From: Chiloscyllium plagiosum
Lineage: Eukaryota
Assembly (NCBI RefSeq): GCF_004010195.1
Contig: NC_057718.1
Location: 64,919,548 to 64,983,547 of the forward strand
Reading direction: 5' to 3'
Length of the DNA: 64,000 bases
Below the pieces are notes generated by a model. It saw only the letters and a list, made by a program, of their open reading frames with translations, was not told where the DNA came from and did not search any database. A program made the position numbers and the translations under genes. This document shows positions 7,712-57,430 of the stretch, piece by piece; within the stretch, counting starts at the first letter, position 1; each line of letters begins with the position of its first letter.

Positions 7712-7838
7712 GATAAAGTGAGGACTGCAAATGCTGGAAATCAGAGGCGAGTGTATGGTGCTGGAAAAGCACAGCACATCAGGCAGCATCCGAGGAGCAG
7801 GAAAATTGACGTTTCAGGCAAAAGCCTTTCATGAGGAA
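7712..7838 (-). mobile_element. solo PLE terminal repeat inserted in CR1
   Basis: matches the other copies of the repeat; hammerhead core mutated to CTCATGA. Confidence 0.8.
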
Positions 7839-10631: not shown

Positions 10632-11669
10632 ATAAGTTTGGATGACTTGGTTATTCTGGCCCTTTCCAGGAAGAAGGATCAAGACATTTAGGTTTGCAAA
10701 CAATGCAATGGTGAGAATGGTTAGACTATTAACCCCCAAGTTCGATGGAAGTATTTGAACTGTCAAGCTTTATAAATGATTGGACTTTAAACGTCCTAAT
10801 TAATTACAAAACTGAAGAAAGTTACAGGTCTAGAAGATAGCCAATGAGCCATTCTATACGGATACAAAACCCAAGTGATTTCATAATGCCATGGAGGTCG
10901 TCGTTGAGGGAGGAAGAGTCCATAGGAAGCCATTGTAGAATTGCAATAAAGTTTTTTCATAAAAATATCACTGAGCCAGTATAGCTCTGTCTTAATTCAT
11001 AATGAAATACTGCACAAGTCAGATTGTGTTCAGAAGTCATCCATTTGGACAAAGAAAACTGAGTTAAGAATCATTCCCAGAGAATGAGAGCAGATTAAAA
11101 TAACACTGTAGAGGAAGATTTTCAACAATTTTATATGATAAATAAGGGATGTTTTCTGTGGTTTAGAGTGTAAGTTGCCAATCGAAACACTGTTTAGTTA
11201 GTGTTGTATTTAAATCGGGTGTTACACTCAAGTCTCAAAATTGAAATCATGTTATGCATTCCTTTCATCCATTCATAGGATGTTTCAGTTTTTTTTTTAC
11301 AATGTTCGGTCTCCGCAGGGATCATCACTGCAATAGTCAGCTTTCATTTTGATGTAGAATTTAATTAAATATCAATTTAAATTCCTTCATAGCAGTACAG
11401 AGGTCTCAGATTGCAGAAAGATCTCGATTCTCAAGGATCATTGCTGCATGCTAATTCTATCTCATTCGTATTCATTTCAAGCCTCTAACACTCACTCAAA
11501 GGACTTCACTAGCAAAAAGCACAAGTTAATTGTTATCAACAACTTTATTAATAAGGTACCAAATATTATGAAATATAGGCTGCAACTTTGAAAAATAAGA
11601 TGGAAAAGACACATGCCAGCAAGTGATGTCCATTTCCCCATTGTTAAAAGAGGAAGGTAGTTCACTCAC

Positions 11670-11812
11670 CATTAAAACACCAAAGGACCACCAATCTGCA
11701 CTTTGTGCATGACCACGTCGATTAACTACTTCAGGAGCCATATATTCTATTGTCCCACAGAAGGAATAGGCTCGTTTGTCAAGGTCAACAGCCTCCTTGC
11801 TGAGTCCAAAGT
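11670..11812 (-). CDS. RPS6KA2: p90 RSK coding exon, DFG and activation loop
   Basis: 143 bp, ctcag|AC...ATG|gtgagt; (D)[59 protein letters not shown] is RSK3-type. Confidence 0.95.
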
Positions 11813-11947
11813 CTGAGTAACAAGAATGACTTTTAGGTATGGCTGAAATATTGTCAAACTATCAGAAAAAAATGCAATGAACTTAAATATTCTATTTCAA
11901 TGCTACTGGCTTTCATCCTCATTAACAATAAGATAAAATACACTCAC

Positions 11948-14265: not shown

Positions 14266-15384
14266 AGAGAGTGAGGTGCGGGATAACTACAGCAGATCAG
14301 GCAACATCCAAGGAGTAGGAGAATCGATGTTTCGGGCATATGCCCTTCATCAGAAATGAGACTGGTGAGCCAGGGGCTGAGAGATAAATGGGAGGGGGGG
14401 TGGGGCTGGGGGAAAGGCAACTGAGAATGTGATAGGTAAATGAAAGTGAAGGTAATGGTGATAGGTTGGAGAGGAGGATGAAGCAGATAGGTAAGAAGGA
14501 AGATGGACAGGTAGGAAAGATCAAGAGGTCAGTGCTGAGTCGGAAGGTTTGATCTGGGATAAGGTGGGGGGAGGGAAAATGAGGAAACTGGTCAAAAACA
14601 CATTAATCTCGAGTGATTGGAGGGTCCCAAGCATGCTTCCTCCAGGCGTCAGGTGGTTGGGGTTTGGCAGTGGAGGACGCCCAGGACTTGCATGTCTTTG
14701 ACGGAGTGGGAGGGAAATTAAAGTTCTGGATTAGTTGTGTTGGAAGAGCACAGCGGTTCAGGCAGCATCCGAGGAGCAGTAAAATCGATGTTTCGGGCAA
14801 AAGCCCTTCATCAGGAATAAAGGCAGAGAGCCTGAAGCTTGGAGAGATAAGCTAGAGGAGGGTGGGGGTGGGGACAAAGTAGCATCAAGTTTGTTTCAGG
14901 ACATGGTTGAAAAGCTCCAGGGCAGAGGAAATGACCTGGAAGTTGCAGTGGGAGAGGGACTCCCTGAGATTCTTGTAGACAGAGGAGGAAATCTTCAAGG
15001 CAGGCATCCTTGCAAGAGGATTCGCAGTAGGGTTAAAATCAACTAGGTAAAAACAATGACTGCAGATGCTGGAAACAAGATTCTGGATTAGTGGTTCTGG
15101 AAGAGTACAGCAGTTCAGGCAGCATCCGAGGAGCAGTAAAATCGACGTTTCTGTGCTTGGTCATCGGGCATTGGGGTTATTTCATGCGTGTGCCCCGGTG
15201 GTGATGTTCTCTGAAGCATTCTGCAAGTCGGCATCCTGTCTCCCCAATGTAGAAGAGACCGCATCAGGAGCAACGGAAACAGTAAATGACATGTGGAAGT
15301 GCAGATAAAACTCTGCTCCTTTGGGGCCTTGGACGGAGGTGAGAGGGGAGGTGTAGGCACAGGTTTCTTGAGGTGGCAAAAAAG
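14266..15384 (-). mobile_element. PLE 3' fragment containing a nested mini-PLE (14724-15151)
   Basis: 12-bp target duplication ATTTTTCAGAAA at 14254-14265 and 15385-15396; three terminal-repeat copies; GIY-YIG remnant. Confidence 0.85.
14783..14818 (-). ncRNA. hammerhead motif copy (GTC changed to ATC)
   Basis: ATTC-CTGATGA-A-GGGC-TTTT-GCCC-GAAAC-ATC-GAT. Confidence 0.55.
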
Positions 15385-21025: not shown

Positions 21026-21212
21026 AGCTTCCATCTATCGCCATCCCAACTATCTTCCACCCCCAGTCCCACTCTCCTTTTTATTTCTCAGCCTGTTGCA
21101 TCCCAAATTCCTGATGAAGGGTTTATGCCCAAAACATTGACTTCCCTGCTCCTTGAGTGCTGCCTGACCTGCTGTGCTTTTCCAGCGCCATACTTTTCGA
21201 CTCTGACTCTTA
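21026..21212 (+). mobile_element. PLE 3' UTR and terminal repeat fragment
   Basis: CTGATGAAGGGTTTATGCCCAAAAC at 21111, followed by the shared repeat. Confidence 0.8.
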
Positions 21213-21734
21213 AATCTCCCACCCAGACCCTCTTTCAAAAGGCTACTACTTTGAAGCAAATTTAGTCAGTCCTCTTAACACTTTCTTTGACCTGGTGACA
21301 ATTTTTGTATGACTAATGTACAAAAGTATTCACAGAAGTGTAAAGGTACTATGTCATTGTAAGCTATGTTGCATATAGACCTAACTTTACAAATGTGGCC
21401 TGCCTGCAGTATTTTGAAATAGATTGAAGCAGTAATGGTTATGCACATTTAAAGTGATAAGCTAAGAGCTTTAAACAAGAAGATGCAGGAAGGATGTTTT
21501 CAATGACTGGGAACCCAGAACGAGGGATCACAGTGTAGGAATAATGGATAGGCCACCTAGGACAGAGATGAGGGGAAGCCATTCCATCCAGAGAGTAGTG
21601 AGACTGTTGAATTCCCACCACAAGAACTCTTGAGACCAAAACATTGAAAACTTTCAAGAAAGATGTAGGTACAGCTCCTAGGAATAATCTCATGAATGTT
21701 ATTTTGTCTTAATGAGTGAAAGAAACAGTTCTTA

Positions 21735-21884
<150 letters not shown>

Positions 21885-41319: not shown

Positions 41320-42590
41320 CCATAGAGTCATAGAGTCCTACAGCACAGAGACCCTTTGGCCCAAATTGGTCCATGCCAACCAAAATGTCCATCCACGCTA
41401 ACCCCATTTCCCTGCACTTGGCCCATATCCTTTTAATCCTTTCCTATCCATGTATTTGTCCAAATGCCTTCTAAATATTGTTAATGTATCTGCCTCAACA
41501 ACTCATTCCATATATGTACCACCCTCTGTGTAAAAAAGTTGTCCCTCAGGTTCCCTTTTATTCTTTCCCCTCTAACATTAAACTGATGCCCTCTCATCCT
41601 CAGTTCTCCAAACCTGGAAAAAAGATGAAGTGCATTCACCTGATCCATGCCTCTCATGATCTTATACAACTCCATAAGGTACCCTCTCAGTCTCCTACTC
41701 TCTAAAGAAAAATATCCTAGCTTGTCCAACCTCTCCCTATAATCAGATCCTTGAGTCCAGACAACAAACTTGTAAACTTCTTCTGCACTTTTTCCAATTT
41801 AATACCATCCTTCCTATAGCAAGGTGATCAAAACTGAGCACAACACTCCAAATGTGGCCTCATTGATGTCCTGTATAACTGCTACATAACTTTCCGGCTT
41901 CGATACTCAGTGCCCTGACTGATGAAGGCCAGTGTGCCAAAAGCCTTCATCACTGCCCTTTCTACCTGTGGCTCCACTTTCAGAGAACTGTAAACCTGAA
42001 CTCCACAGTCACTTTGTTCCACTACACTCCTTAAGGCCCTATCATTCACCATGAAACTCCTACCTTGATTTGACTTTCCAAAATGCAAGCCCTCACACTT
42101 AACTATATTAAACTCCATTTGATATTTCTTGGCCTACTTCCCCAGCTAATTAAGATTCTGCTACAATTTCTGATAATCTTCCTCATTGTCCACAATACCG
42201 CCTATTTTGGTGTTATCAGCAAATTTACTAATTATGCCTTGTACATTCTCATCCAAATCATTGATACAGACAACAAACAATAATGGGCCCAGCACTGACC
42301 CTTGAGGTACTCCACTGGTCACAGCCTCCAGTCCAACAAGCATTCTTCCACTATTATCCTCTGCTTCCTACCATCAGGCCAATTTTGTATGCAATTTGCC
42401 AACTCGCCCTGGATTCCATGTGATGTAACCTTCCGGAGCAGCCTACTATGTGGAACCTTATCAAAGGCCTTACTGAAATCCATATAAACTACGTCTACCG
42501 CCCTGCTCTCATCAATCTTCCTGGTCACTTCATCAAAGAATTCTAACAAATTTGCAAGGCATGATCTCCCACTTACAAAGCCATATATTT
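41320..42590 (-). mobile_element. CR1 RT and 3' fragment
   Basis: VVYMDFSKAFDKVPH, SGVPQGSVLGPLLF and SKFADNTK motifs. Confidence 0.9.
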
Positions 42591-42649
42591 TCAGACTTGT
42601 CTCTGTTTCACAACTTGATAAATTGTCTTAAAACTCCCAATGTTGTTTT

Positions 42650-44585: not shown

Positions 44586-45099
44586 AAGTTTTTTTTTCTT
44601 GTAGTTCAACCTAGTTCTGTAATTACAGTTATCAGCACAGTTGACATTCTTCACTCTCTCAGATTTCAAGAACTTCAGAAAATTGCAGAAAATGTCATGA
44701 TTCATCTTATTAATACAGCAATCGCAATTCTTCAAAACCACAGGGGACATTTTTGTAATCTTCTGACAGACCTAACAGGAGTTAAGGCTTTCACTCTGCT
44801 ATGAACTAAGGACACATTAATGATCTGCAGATTTCTTTTAGATTAATTGCTTTGTATTCATTAATAACTTGTTTGAGAAACTGAGTTGTATCTAAAGTAT
44901 AATATAGAATCATTTTCAATTAAAAAGCAAATTCGCAGATTTTTTTGTGGAAAAAAAGTGACTTTAGATCTAATAATTGGGCGAACCTGACCGCAAAAGA
45001 TGACGAGGTAAAAACAATGATTGCAGATGCTGGAAACCAGATTCTGGATTAGTGGTGCTGGAAGAGCACAGCAGTTCAGGCAGCATCCAAGGAGCTTTG

Positions 45100-45137
45100 A
45101 AATCGACGTTTCGGGCAAAAGCCCTTCATCAGGAATA
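45100..45137 (-). ncRNA. minimal type I hammerhead ribozyme motif in a PLE terminal repeat (intact core)
   Basis: minus strand reads ATTC-CTGATGA-A-GGGC-TTTT-GCCC-GAAAC-GTC-GATT; predicted cleavage between 45105 and 45104; stem I is weak. Confidence 0.7.
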
Positions 45138-45362
45138 AAGGCAGTGAGCCTGGAGCATGGAGAGATAAGCTCATCATGCTGCAATGGTTTTCTTTTATTT
45201 ATCCAGTTGTGGTATAGCCCATAACTAAAAAAAATATTAAATTTTTAAGACGTTTTTCTTTAAAATGAATCCAAATGAAAAATAATTATTGAAACTGTAA
45301 TGAATCAACAAAATAATCACCAATTTTTGCATAGTAAAATCAACAAAGGCCAACAGTATTAC

Positions 45363-45505
45363 CTCAGCAGCATACTGGGTACCATCCACTGTGTGCTCAG
45401 ATCCTGGAGTGCTCTCTGATCCCCAATGAAAATGCAGCTGAGATGCGAGATATTTCTGTGTGAAACCACCGCTTATGCTCATTGAATCTGGGAGTGAAAG
45501 TTGAA
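45363..45505 (-). CDS. isolated alpha-carbonic anhydrase exon (CA9/CA12/CA14-like exon 4); no partner exons found in the window
   Basis: 143 bp, polypyrimidine tract-tcaag|TT...GAG|gtaat; (V)QLSLPDSMSISGGFTQKYLASQLHFHWGSESTPGSEHTVDGTQYAAE; contains the Zn-ligand HxH, GSEH and AE motifs; no stop codons. Confidence 0.88.
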
Positions 45506-46775
45506 CTTGAGAAAAAAACAAAAAGTGCAACAATGTTACTGTCCTTTTATATTAAACCAGATGGAATCACGTGAATGTTCTCTTACAATTTCAATCAACA
45601 TTACTAAGCAGCACAAACCGGTGCCGCACGTTATATTCCACACAGGTCCACCTTAGTATCACAGGTATTTTGGGATGGTGAGTCTTTGTAATCAGAAAAA
45701 AAAAATCGGTGGGCACCAGGGGCGTTCTGTCCTTGTTGCGGTTGGAGGGGTTGGGTCTGAGGGCGGGGGTGCGGGATGTGGATGAGATGCGTTGGAGGGC
45801 ATCTTTGACCACGTGGGAAGGGAAATTGCGGTCTCTAGAGAAGGAGGCCATCTGGTGTGTTCTATGGTGGAACCGCTCCTCCTGGGAGCAGATACGGCGG
45901 AGGAATTGGGAATACGGGATGGCATTTTTGCAAGAGGTAGGGTGGGAAGAGGTGTGTAATCCAGGTAGCTGTGGGAGTCGGTGGGTTTGTAGAAAATGTC
46001 AGTGTCAAGTCTGTCGTCACTGATGGAGATGGAGAGGTCCAGGAAGGGGAGGGAGGTGTCAGAGATGGTCCAGTTAAATTTAAGGTCAGGGTGGAATGTG
46101 TTGGTGAAGTTGATGAATTGCTCAACCTCCTCGCGGGAGCATGAGGTGGCGCCAATGCAGTCATCAATGTAGCGGAGGAAGAGGTGGGGTGTGGTGTCGG
46201 TGTAATTACGGAAGATCAACTGCTCTACGTAGCCAACAAAGAGACAGGCATAGCTGGGGCCCATACGTGTGCCCATGGCTACCCCTTTGGTCTGGAGGAA
46301 GTGGGAGGATTCAAAGGAGAAATGACAACTAGATGGAATTTATAGCATGAACTAAGTGAAAATGTGATGGAGCAGGAATTTGCTCACCAGAATAACAAAT
46401 GGGTTCGCCCTGCCTGAGTTACGAGAGTCAATCAATATTGCATGCTGTGAGCCAACACTACATGGTAGTTTGCCTGTTTGGGAATAGACACTCACAGGAT
46501 GCTGTAGGATTTCAAAAGCCAAGGTGAAAACTTAACGAAGCAAATTTCAAGCTGCCTGTAAGCCTTGGATTTACTCATTGCTGTCTCCAGTTGAGATGGT
46601 TGAAGAGTTTTCTTATTCAAACTTAAATGGAGAAAGACATCCTTCCTTGCGAACTTGCAATGTCATCAAGCAGGGGAGGTCAATGTCACTCTATTATCCT
46701 TTACATAACAATGTGGTACTCAAAATGTTTAAAAATTCCAGTAGGTCTGCCACGTCTCATAACATGAATCCAAAT

Positions 46776-51294: not shown

Positions 51295-51708
51295 TTAGGC
51301 AAAAGTCAGGAGTGCAGATGCTGGAAATCAGAGTCTTCTGCCTCGGAACACATCAATCTCAGGGCATCAATGTGGACTTCACCAGTTTCCTCATTTCCCC
51401 TCCCCCCACCTTACCCCAGTTCCAACCTTCCAGCTCAGGACCATCCTCATGACCTGTCCTACCTGCCTATCTTCCTTCCCACTATCCGCTCCAAACTCCT
51501 CTCTGACCTATCACCTTCATCCCCATCCCCATCTACCTATTGTACTTTTTTCTACCTTCTCCCCAGCCCACCCCGCTCCCATTTATCTCTCCACCCTGGA
51601 AGCTCCCTGCCTTCATTCCTGATGAAGGGCTTTTGCCAGAAAGGTCGATTTCCTGCTCCTCGGATGCTGCCTGACCTGCTGTGCTTTTCCAGCACCACTC
51701 TAATCTAG
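51295..51708 (+). mobile_element. PLE 3' fragment with an inverted 5' repeat piece
   Basis: 13-bp duplication ACCAAAATTGGAG at 51282-51294 and 51709-51721; hammerhead-like motif at 51619-51650. Confidence 0.85.
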
Positions 51709-52565
51709 ACCAAAATTGGAGGTGTAGTGGAAAATGAAGGAGGTTATCTCAGAGTACAATGGGATCTCGATCAGATGGGCCAATGGTCCGAGGAATGGCA
51801 GATGGAGTTTAATTTAGATAAATGTGAGGTGCTGCATTTTGGAAAGGCAAATCAAGGCAGGATTTGTACACTTAATGGTAAGGCCCTGGGGAGTGTTGCT
51901 AAACAAAGAGACCTTGGAGTGCAGGTTAATAGTTCCTTGAAAGTGGAGTCACAGATAGACAGGATAGTGAAAAAAGTGTTTGGTATGCTTTGCTTTGTTG
52001 GTTGGTGCAGGAGGTCATGTTCTGCTGTACAGGACATTGGGGTTAGGCCACTTTGGAATACTGCATGTAATTCTGATCTGTCTGCTATAGGAAGGACGTT
52101 GTGAAACTTGAATTGGTTTGGAAAAGATTTACGAGGATGTTGCCAGGGTTGGAGGTTTTGAGCAATAGGGAGAGGCTGAATAGGCTGAGGGGTGACCTGA
52201 TAGAAGTTTATAAAATAATGAGGGCGCATGGATAGGGTGAATAGACAAGGTCTTTTCCCCAGGGTGGGACAGTCCAAAACTAGAGGGCATAGGTTTAAGA
52301 TGAAAGGGGAAATATTTAAAAGGCAATTTTTCAATGCAGAGGGTGGTGCGTGTACTAAATGAGCTGCGGCAGAAAGTGGTGGAAGCTGGTGCAATTACAA
52401 TGTTTAAAAGGCATCTGGATGAATATATGAATAGGAAGGGTTTAGAGGAATAATGGGCCAAGTGCTGGCAAATGGGACTAGATTGATTTAGGATACCTGG
52501 TTGGCATGGACGATTTGGATCAATGGGTCTGTTTCCGTGCTATAATCTCTATGACTCTATGACTC
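51709..52565 (+). mobile_element. CR1 3' fragment
   Basis: WQMEFNLDKCEVLHFGK; (CTATGACT)n tail. Confidence 0.88.
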
Positions 52566-56599: not shown

Positions 56600-57430
56600 A
56601 AAACTGTGGTGCTGGAAAAGCAGTCAGGCAGCATCCGAGGAGCAAGAGAGTCAACGTTTCGAGCAAAAGCTCTTCATCAGGAATGTGGGGTGGCCCAAAG
56701 GAGCTGAGAGGTAAATAGGGGGGTGGGGCTGGGGGAAAGGTAGCTGGGAATATGACAGGTAGATGGAGGTGGAGGGTGATGGTGATAGGTTGGAGAGAAG
56801 GGTGGAGCAGATAGGTGGGAAGAAATATGGACAAATAGGACAGGTCAAGAGGGCAATGCCAAGTTGGAAGGTTGGATTTAGGATAAGGTGGTGGAGGGGA
56901 AATGAAGAAACTAGTGAAATCGACATTGATCCCATGTGGTTGGGAGATCCCAAGGCNNNNNNNNNNNNNNNNNNNNNNNNNNNNNNNNNNNNNNNNNNNN
57001 NNNNNNNNNNNNNNNNNNNNNNNNNNNNNNNNNNNNNNNNNNNNNNNNNNNNNNNNNNNNNNNNNNNNNNNNNNNNNNNNNNNNNNNNNNNNNNNNNNNN
57101 NNNNNNNNNNNNNNNNNNNNNNNNNNNNNNNNNNNNNNNNNNNNNNNNNNNNNNNNNNNNGACAGGGGATTTGCAGCGGGAATGGTCTCTATGTTGTATC
57201 CAGAGGTTGGTGGCATGGGAGATGAGGACCGTGGGGGGTTCTATCCTTGTTGTGATAGGAGGGGTGGGGTTCAAGGGTGGTGTTGTGGGAAGTGAGGAGG
57301 TATGCTCAAGGGCATCGTCGACCATGTGGGAGGGGAAATTGCAGTCCTTGAAAAAGGGGGGTCCATCTGGAATGTTCTGTGGTGGAATTGGACCACCTGG
57401 GAGCAGATGCAACGGAAGTGGAGGTAATTC
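56600..57430 (-). mobile_element. PLE fragment spanning an assembly gap (56957-57160)
   Basis: colinear with the copies at 9345-10490 and 53228-54840. Confidence 0.85.
56650..56684 (-). ncRNA. hammerhead motif copy with compensatory stem II
   Basis: ATTC-CTGATGA-A-GAGC-TTTT-GCTC-GAAAC-GTT-GAC. Confidence 0.6.

Follow-up and report, generated by a model that had tools for sequence, protein, structure and literature searches.

The analysed stretch of DNA (hereafter the window) comprises 64,000 nucleotides of the shark Chiloscyllium plagiosum (NCBI RefSeq assembly GCF_004010195.1, contig NC_057718.1, positions 64,919,548 to 64,983,547), and it holds an intact exon of an alpha-carbonic anhydrase (CA) gene embedded in Penelope-like element (PLE) sequence, a composite that lies in an intron of an RPS6KA2-like gene of the RSK kinases. 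Searches covered the 3.56-Gb assembly, in which the contig of the window is referred to as C9, and element coordinates are window positions read on the minus strand (Table 1). On that strand, a PLE reverse-transcriptase (RT) fragment is followed by a segment of host sequence (the cargo), a short boundary stretch that we call the patch, and the PLE 3' terminal region. A sequence-only reading of the window had described the RT fragment with an intact YIDD motif, the 536-bp non-PLE segment with its intact 143-bp exon, acceptor, donor and intron flanks, and ATGAC at both outer ends (GTCAT on the minus strand). All of these were confirmed here, the RT fragment as a 215-amino-acid open frame and the terminal pentamer with two of its 5 bp being ambiguous.

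Table 1. Parts of the composite insertion, in minus-strand order (window positions)
Feature	Positions	Strand	Remarks
5' copy of GTCAT, putative target-site duplication	46322..46326	-	last two bases (AT) overlap the first two of the PLE fragment
PLE reverse-transcriptase fragment, 'B-type', 5'- and 3'-truncated, 616 bp	45708..46323	-	open frame, YIDD at 46171-46160
Host cargo, 536 bp of a carbonic anhydrase gene (202 bp intron, exon, 191 bp intron)	45172..45707	-	
Alpha-CA exon, 143 bp, intact (QLHFHWG...GSEH)	45363..45505	-	AG acceptor, GT donor
22-nt patch at the cargo/tail boundary	45150..45171	-	PLE-type in all three daughters, SINE-type at C1 (see text)
PLE 3' terminal region, 'A-type' tail core with minimal hammerhead motif	45043..45149	-	motif, no Rfam match
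38-nt 3' extension (PLE 'tail' in the strict sense)	45005..45042	-	present in some copies, absent from short-form copies
3' copy of GTCAT, followed by CTTTT	45000..45004	-	fits the (G/C)ATCTTT-like sequence after several other tails

Carbonic anhydrase exon and Penelope-like sequence in an RSK intron

The exon matched the carbonic anhydrase family of Pfam (PF00194) with E = 1.8e-14 over profile positions 57-112 (translation QLHFHWGSESTPGSEH...), carries a polypyrimidine tract before its AG acceptor as well as a GT donor, and found its best solved structures in CA9 and CA12. The CA sequence of the window is an exon copy and not a gene: an alpha-CA gene holds a complete domain of about 254 profile positions with three zinc histidines, and of these the window has the HFH of QLHFHWG, the third histidine lying outside the exon. 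When the whole assembly was searched with Pfam, 44 exon-level CA matches came up, among which the window exon is the sole one on C9, which extends to the whole contig the earlier observation that the 64 kb contain no other CA exon.

The RT fragment gave a weak match to Pfam RVT_1 (E = 0.0073, below the cut-off), and a PDB sequence search with it returned no matches. Its longer relatives place it among PLEs, as 237 longer proteins match it at E ≤ 1e-5, many of them with RVT_1 and some also with GIY-YIG, and one relative (P0090, 57% identity) carried upon rescanning RVT_1 at 414-603 and then a C-terminal GIY-YIG domain at 839-919, which is the canonical domain order of endonuclease-bearing PLEs. 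The window copy is a dead fragment that lacks this endonuclease, since it stops at 45708, before the endonuclease region. Single open reading frames (ORFs) of an unmasked sister copy (L031) gave no Pfam GIY-YIG match, and the endonuclease region reads N in most sister loci. About 2.5 kb downstream of the composite, ORFs at 42164-42627 (minus strand) had clear RVT_1 matches (E = 4.4e-9 and 5.6e-6) and belong to another retroelement, unrelated to the PLE fragment by position.

The PLE 3' terminal region contains, at 45132-45105, the hammerhead core CUGAUGA-A-GGGC-UUUU-GCCC-GAAA-C-GUC, and this 28-mer was found seven times in the window with up to three mismatches, compared with none expected from 100 shuffles. 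Minimal dimer-dependent hammerheads of metazoan PLEs were listed by Cervera and de la Pena (PMC4209133), and the window motif has the features given in the accessible part of that paper, namely CUGAUGA, an extra A before helix II, a G10.1-C11.1 pair opening helix II, a 4-bp helix II, GAAA, and a palindromic C-G at 15.2/16.2 before UC that replaces helix III. Rfam returned no family at the gathering score over the whole 64-kb window, hammerhead included, and at E ≤ 10 over 44800-45400 it gave six weak unrelated matches, none of them a hammerhead; we ascribe this lack of a match to the models, which expect a helix III, and do not count it against the motif. The intact hammerhead core noted earlier was thus borne out as a motif in the PLE 3' end without an Rfam match, and motif and conservation point to a putative ribozyme. 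The 3' ends of PLE copies are of two kinds, ending either in ...ccactaatccaga (short form) or 38 nt beyond it (long form). Many further PLE tail fragments, 73-92% identical to the tail of the composite, lie in RSK introns at window positions 14724-14853, 15042-15151, 51583-51709, 7723-7838, 2485-2566, 21107-21190 and 56606-56684, the two near 14.7-15.2 kb being in the same orientation and about 190 bp apart.

The host gene was identified from its exons. A kinase exon at 11649-11837 (minus strand) is closest to RPS6KA2 proteins, and when one RPS6KA2 protein was searched against C9, its 11 exon-level matches fell on the minus strand and flanked the insertion to either side; the RPS6KA2-like gene spans at least C9:64814030-64984109, and its introns are tens of kb long and packed with repeats. 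Residues 151-190 of RSK are encoded at window positions 21732-21851 and residues 33-78 start 425 bp past the right end of the window, and these two exons enclose the insertion (C9:64964552-64965870), which has gene-sense orientation, so that the flanking exon matches confirmed its proposed location in an RSK intron. The exons for residues 79-150 were not detected in the protein search, which used a stricter first look, and Pfam found no kinase match in 150 minus-strand ORFs of at least 38 amino acids between 40 and 64 kb, the upstream RSK exon lying just beyond the window.

At the outer boundaries, PLE similarity begins at 46323 with 'atttctcc' and the flank before it reads '...ctagttgtc', where intact copies read ...cttaaca/atttctcc (slashes mark junctions). 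The sequence directly past the last base of the tail (45005) is 'gtcatcttttgcgg'. The AT of the 5' GTCAT may equally be the PLE start, and the short GTCAT duplication sits exactly where a single integration event would place one. The flank at 46324-46700 is single-copy in the assembly, where no alternative haplotig with an empty site was found for it.

Source locus and sister copies of the cargo

Genome-wide, the 536-base cargo was found at exactly four places (4/4 candidates scored), and a 101-nt probe across the cargo/tail junction found the same four. One of them, on contig C1, is a CA gene: it has a Pfam match of identical score to that of the window exon, which belongs to an ordered series of CA exon matches on the plus strand (profile positions 4-62, 57-112, 107-144 and 164-217). 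The source of the cargo is C1:57657989-57658524, which is identical to the window at 535 of 536 positions (one mismatch), and the C9 and C1 exons are identical, while the exon of a third place, on contig C24, has two amino-acid changes. The second near-identical copy inside a complete CA gene that had been predicted from the window alone was therefore found, with matching intron flanks. The similarity does not end with the cargo, as window positions 45707-45002 are 97.6% identical to C1 over 707 bp, spanning cargo and tail.

The C1 intron explains this continuity. An antisense short interspersed nuclear element (SINE) begins 191 bp past the exon, and nested inside it lies a 5'-truncated PLE 3' tail in gene-sense orientation (hereafter the resident tail). 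The host intron ends in ...gcagcatgatg, and the 11-mer (GCAGCATGATG) recurs 288 bp downstream, directly past the far end of the antisense SINE. Because of this position, we read the 11-mer as the target duplication of the SINE and the PLE tail as nested within the SINE, about 220 bp of which it replaced (SINE positions ~20-240 are missing). The SINE itself (L022 2026-2335) is of tRNA type and has a perfect 11-bp target duplication, and a sense copy of the SINE head directly follows it, so that, immediately 3' of the resident tail, the CA pre-mRNA could fold back into a long hairpin. A second PLE tail is present in the C1 CA gene at C1:57652125-57652164 (minus), antisense and about 6 kb upstream of the captured exon.

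The copies on C9, C24 and a fourth contig (C15), referred to here as daughters, form a 5'-truncation series. C9 and C1 hold cargo bases 1-536, C24 holds bases 180-536 (357 bp, with the exon) and C15 bases 442-536 (95 bp). A four-way alignment showed that the 3' junction ...gcagcatgatg/ is common to all four copies and that only the 5' start of the host sequence varies. Outside the patch, C1 differs from C9 at 3 of 681 positions, from C24 at 8 of 498 (two being the last tail columns, where the C24 tail ends early), and from C15 at 4 of 240; no variant is shared between copies, in keeping with their independent derivation from one source. The daughters thus share a 3' end, vary in their upstream flank and each carry a target duplication, as in transduction of a 5' flank. 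The two additional PLE-linked copies (C24 and C15) answer the earlier suggestion that the same cargo might travel in further elements.

Target duplications are clean at C24 and C15. At C24, 12 bp (ATTACAGAATCA) are duplicated around a 766-bp unit that consists of an inverted, 5'-truncated PLE 3' part (243 bp), 357 bp of cargo and the direct tail; at C15, 11 bp (GGTAAATACTG; 16 bp with one mismatch) are duplicated around an inverted arm, 95 bp of cargo and the tail. The inverted arms at both loci end in the short form, the direct arms are 38 bases longer, and neither cargo-plus-tail unit has an RT fragment. This combination of 5' truncation, an inverted arm, a 30-40-bp tail and a variable target duplication agrees with the architecture described for PLEs in the accessible part of PMC8557442, where an inverted 5'-truncated copy stands beside the main copy and a 30-40-bp 'tail' is present at one end only. 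For the Anolis PLE known as PAc, cleavage and extension of both DNA strands were found in vitro, together with two internal sites of RT initiation that lie one tail-length from each other (PMC11167929). The window copy has a long tail and the 5-bp duplication, without an inverted arm. The hammerhead core is intact in C9 and C24 and has CpG-type changes at C1 (GAAAC to GAAAT) and C15 (GUC to AUC), as would be expected if the ribozyme were not maintained after insertion. Past the tail, three loci selected by tail similarity (L038, L039 and L040) read gatctttg, gattttta and gatctttt, and C1 (L022) reads atcttta; this (G/C)AT(C/T)TTT-like sequence past the PLE 3' ends, seen at a handful of loci, suggests a possible target preference of the endonuclease of this PLE family.

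The RT fragment of the window copy has a different history from its tail. It is 96-97% identical to 11 other genomic copies (12 loci examined, the twelfth being the window itself), yet in 10 of these 11 the downstream tail is only 89-93% identical to the window tail, the exception (L036, 97.7%) having its tail unusually near the RT end, whereas the tails of all five tail-selected loci are 97.6-98.8% identical to it. Diagnostic letters in a tail alignment, which took in 8 of the 11 RT-locus tails (three were left out by the filter), class all eight as 'B-type' and the tails of the window, C1, C24, C15 and the tail-selected loci as 'A-type'. Given this split in both diagnostic letters and identity, the RT fragment and the tail come from different PLE subfamilies. 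The RT/cargo junction between them is blunt, without microhomology (window ...ggtgcccacc/gatttttt; intact PLE copies ...ggtgcccacc/ttccaccc; C1 ...ccttgttcat/gatttttt), and is unique to C9 in the genome, full-length cargo being present only at C9 and C1. The stretch from the RT end to the tail measures 453-604 bp in the 10 close copies with a downstream tail; the cargo therefore stands in place of about 453-604 bp of element sequence including the endonuclease region, and not of the roughly 750 bp estimated before. The view that a foreign segment had replaced the inside of one PLE also had to be given up, as the cargo is already contiguous with a PLE tail at C1, the C24 and C15 units have no RT, and the RT and tail subfamilies differ.

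The 22-nt patch is where the daughters depart from their source. At C1 its letters are those of the SINE head, and 11 nt of them match three further copies of this SINE exactly and at the expected position. In the daughters it is PLE-type and in register, the host- or SINE-specific letters ending 0 (C9), 2 (C24) and 7 (C15) nt past the intron/SINE boundary, so that the daughters hold 13-20 more PLE bases at the cargo boundary than does the resident tail of C1. As a PLE-type patch is absent from C1, simple read-through of the assembled C1 allele cannot yield the daughters, none of which is a colinear copy of one read-through transcript. The C9 patch is the common A-type form. A 40-mer covering the last 17 bases of the patch and the start of the tail occurs in two common forms, with 1,259 and 407 exact genomic copies, and both arms of C24 share a minority variant whose 21-mer has 159 copies genome-wide. 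Oppositely oriented pairs of that 21-mer, with 0.6-4.5 kb between the two copies, are frequent (at least six such pairs among the first 100 places listed), and both arms of head-to-head PLE insertions seem usually to come from one template lineage. A 'gcttcag' variant shared by C24 and C15 was considered as a mark of common source and rejected, since it is the commoner form genome-wide (1,259 versus 407 exact 40-mers). No preference for ending 5' at the patch was seen among PLE copies, all five tail-selected loci running upstream into PLE sequence.

Origin of the composite insertion

Our preferred explanation, to which we assign a probability of about 0.78, is that the window copy is one of three retro-copies of the C1 CA fragment made by PLE machinery and anchored on the resident intronic tail. 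On at least three occasions, PLE reverse transcription would have produced a cDNA that ends in the PLE tail and continues past the 5' edge of the resident tail into the CA intron and exon, halting after 536, 357 or 95 host bases. Each product would then have been integrated by PLE-type target-primed insertion, with an inverted second arm and duplications of 11-12 bp at C24 and C15. As all three daughters carry 13-20 extra PLE bases at the boundary, the cDNA probably began on ordinary PLE RNA and then crossed in register onto the CA transcript, the resident tail, with about 147 nt of identity, serving as a homology landing pad. This crossing is favoured over a C1 allele with a longer tail, because the C1 patch is proper SINE sequence in place, the C9 patch is the common A-type form and the two C24 arms share a minority variant. 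In the window, the cargo and tail are joined head-to-tail to the 616-bp RT fragment of the other subfamily, most simply through a further template switch. The window copy is thus chimeric, with three parts, and its capture was anchored on a PLE tail that resided in the C1 intron; we infer that the template was RNA and not DNA, in what order the switches took place, and that the window composite arose in a single event. The crossover at the 5' edge of the resident tail, together with the subfamily mismatch in the window, suggests that a single insertion can draw on at least two templates. The earlier proposal that PLE capture moved a host exon into the RSK intron accordingly stands as far as an exon with unspliced flanks was moved by PLE machinery from a source now found on C1, copied from either pre-mRNA or genomic DNA.

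Several observations weigh against this explanation. The assembled C1 locus cannot alone template the patch of any daughter, so that another template has to be supposed, either a further PLE or a C1 allele that is older or otherwise different. The inferred crossover in C24 and C9 ends on letters that mismatch C1, which a simple homology-guided switch does not explain, and the two arms of C15 have no patch variants in common. In the window itself, the duplication is of 5 bp, two of them ambiguous, and there is no inverted arm, unlike at C24 and C15. A-type tails are about 98-99% alike genome-wide, and hence the origin of the tail core of each daughter cannot be assigned. There is a single source locus, and the sense orientation of its resident tail cannot separate an RNA from a DNA template. 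Finally, assembly error is excluded only through the internal consistency of the four loci.

A different history of the window copy, which we consider unlikely, would have involved two steps, with a truncated B-type PLE already present at C9 and a cargo-plus-tail cDNA later integrated beside or into it, a target-site deletion removing the old 3' part. The insertion of the resident tail at C1 shows that a target loss of about 220 bp is possible (SINE positions ~20-240), and both the missing inverted arm, seen at C24 and C15, and the blunt RT/cargo junction without microhomology fit such a course. However, GTCAT stands exactly at both ends of the whole composite (a 5-nt match at fixed positions would arise by chance about once in 1,000), no B-type 3' remnant was found downstream of 45005, and no target duplication surrounds the cargo-plus-tail sub-unit alone. 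A single ...ctagttGTCATcttttgcgg... at this site with neither part present, whether in another allele or in a sister species, would contradict two separate insertions.

Rather improbable in our view is capture from a DNA template, in which the end of a PLE cDNA or tail invaded the genomic tail at C1 and was extended by a polymerase into the intron and exon (by synthesis-dependent strand annealing or break-induced copying) before end-joining. The copied segment is unspliced, a crossover at the edge of the resident-tail homology fits strand invasion as well as it fits an RNA template switch, and genomic DNA had been allowed for in the sequence-only reading. Yet thousands of donor tails are available (2,479 first-look candidates; 1,259 and 407 exact 40-mers) and one locus was used three times, for which a single abundant transcript is the easier explanation. 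In addition, the gene that holds the resident tail is transcribed and has the tail in sense orientation, and in vitro the RT of a PLE starts within RNAs and copes with templates truncated at the 5' end (PMC11167929).

In direct templating, which we hold to be quite improbable, pre-mRNA transcribed from the CA gene on an older or another C1 allele, with a tail 15-20 nt longer at its 5' side (as in C15), would itself have been bound and reverse-transcribed from the internal tail, and the assembled allele would later have changed in the patch. In its favour, the C15 patch retains seven letters specific to C1 before it turns PLE-type, all daughters stay in register, as they would if one template had simply been copied, and PLE RT can start internally on RNA (PMC11167929). 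Against it, the C1 patch is a SINE start in place (the 11-nt exact match to three SINE copies), so that a later change would need restoration of the SINE. The C9 and C24 patches, moreover, differ from that of C15 by 6 and 3 letters, mostly (C9) or in two of three cases (C24) towards the common PLE form, compared with less than 2% in the rest of the sequence, and the assembly contains no second C1-like locus or haplotig.

An assembly artefact, in which the CA segment was mis-joined into C9, appears very improbable: although tandem and inverted PLE structures are known to trouble assemblies (accessible part of PMC8557442), there are three daughters on three contigs with different 5' ends, private substitutions and, at two of them, clean 11-12-bp duplications, the C1 gene keeps its own copy, and the flank at 46324-46700 occurs once in the assembly. 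That the exon belongs to a real CA gene, nested or interleaved, whose other exons lie beyond the window, is a reading with a negligible chance of being correct, for in spite of the intact exon and splice sites this is the sole CA match on C9 among 44 genome-wide, and its flanks, identical to C1 at 535 of 536 positions, stop abruptly at PLE sequence on both sides.

Significance and comparison with known systems

The locus indicates that, for host sequence to be drawn repeatedly into PLE insertions, a resident PLE 3' fragment of about 150 nt suffices, in which the hammerhead region and the 38-nt tail are contained, and it constitutes a natural experiment on a class of elements whose transposition cycle is still poorly known. 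The CA exon in the RSK intron has both splice sites and lies in sense orientation, and is thus raw material of exon shuffling; at 143 nt, its inclusion in an RSK transcript would shift the reading frame. With only 3 of 681 differences from the source outside the patch, the window copy may still be polymorphic and could then be followed in populations. More tentatively, and with less than even odds, resident intronic PLE 3' fragments might generally act as landing pads by which active PLE machinery passes from its own RNA to unspliced transcripts, and splice-competent exons together with flanking intron sequence might so be scattered into other introns throughout the genome, the CA daughters being the first examples to be caught. 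If true, this would be a standing route of exon shuffling in PLE-rich vertebrate genomes, invisible to screens for intron-free retrocopies.

LINE-1 and SVA elements of primates are known for 5' transduction and exon trapping, in which upstream sequence is co-mobilised with a resident retroelement and host exons are carried to new loci. The CA daughters resemble these cases in sharing the 3' end of the element and in the co-mobilisation of upstream host sequence. They differ in that the resident element is a 3' fragment of about 150 nt without a promoter role, that there is no poly(A), and that the PLE sequence of the daughters exceeds that of the resident fragment, which speaks for a switch from one template to another and against the read-through of a single transcript. 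LINE-1 also gives rise to template-switch chimeras (e.g., U6-L1), in which two or three RNAs without relation to each other contribute to one cDNA that integrates with a single target duplication. Unlike in those chimeras, the first switch of the PLE would have been guided to one site by a resident copy of its own 3' end, and it recurred there three times.

Biochemically, the closest system is PAc of Anolis (Frangieh et al. 2024, PMC11167929), which gave a shorter product after 5' truncation of its template in vitro. Its two internal start sites match the short and long 3' ends of the PLE copies, and its extension on both strands matches the inverted arms of C24 and C15; the element's own RNA was used there, however, and use of host transcripts or switching onto them was not described in the main text. 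Animal non-LTR retrozymes, in turn, are non-autonomous derivatives of the pseudo-long terminal repeats (pLTRs) of PLEs that have a hammerhead terminal region and use PLE enzymes in trans (bioRxiv 10.64898/2026.07.22.740005, accessible part). In contrast to their tandem hammerhead repeats, reported to be excluded from introns and exons, the copies described here have a single tail joined to unique host sequence and lie in introns.

Full-text searches at the level of titles and abstracts, in which subscription journals were not covered, found, among the entries listed, no title or abstract on capture of flanks or exons by PLEs in vertebrates. Mobilisation of intron-containing host genes by PLEs is already known in rotifers, and the CA copies are a young and well-documented instance of this rarely seen behaviour, with a cargo boundary that is informative as to mechanism. 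In Adineta vaga, such genes lie between pLTRs and have an 8-bp target duplication, and a few captures of non-coding sequence are reported as well (accessible part of PMC3846280; mobilisation of host genes by rotifer PLEs is also noted in the part of PMC8557442 available to us). As far as the accessible text of PMC3846280 goes, the two systems agree in that the host sequence keeps its introns, that it is bounded by PLE terminal repeats including an inverted copy, that there is a target duplication, and that no internal PLE sequence is shared. Counts of retro-copies that demand intron loss would miss PLE-made copies in both, as argued for rotifers in that text. The rotifer insertions, as described there, contain whole genes between two direct pLTRs and one inverted pLTR, whereas the shark daughters contain a gene fragment with the 3' tail downstream only and, upstream, an inverted arm (C24 and C15) or an RT fragment (C9) instead of a direct pLTR. 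Compared with the same part of that report, the shark case further adds a vertebrate host (the closest named proteins are from sharks), an identified source locus with a solo tail, a 5'-truncation series of three daughters, one of them fused to the RT of another subfamily, signs of template crossing at a resident fragment, and a cargo that is a splice-competent exon inside another gene.

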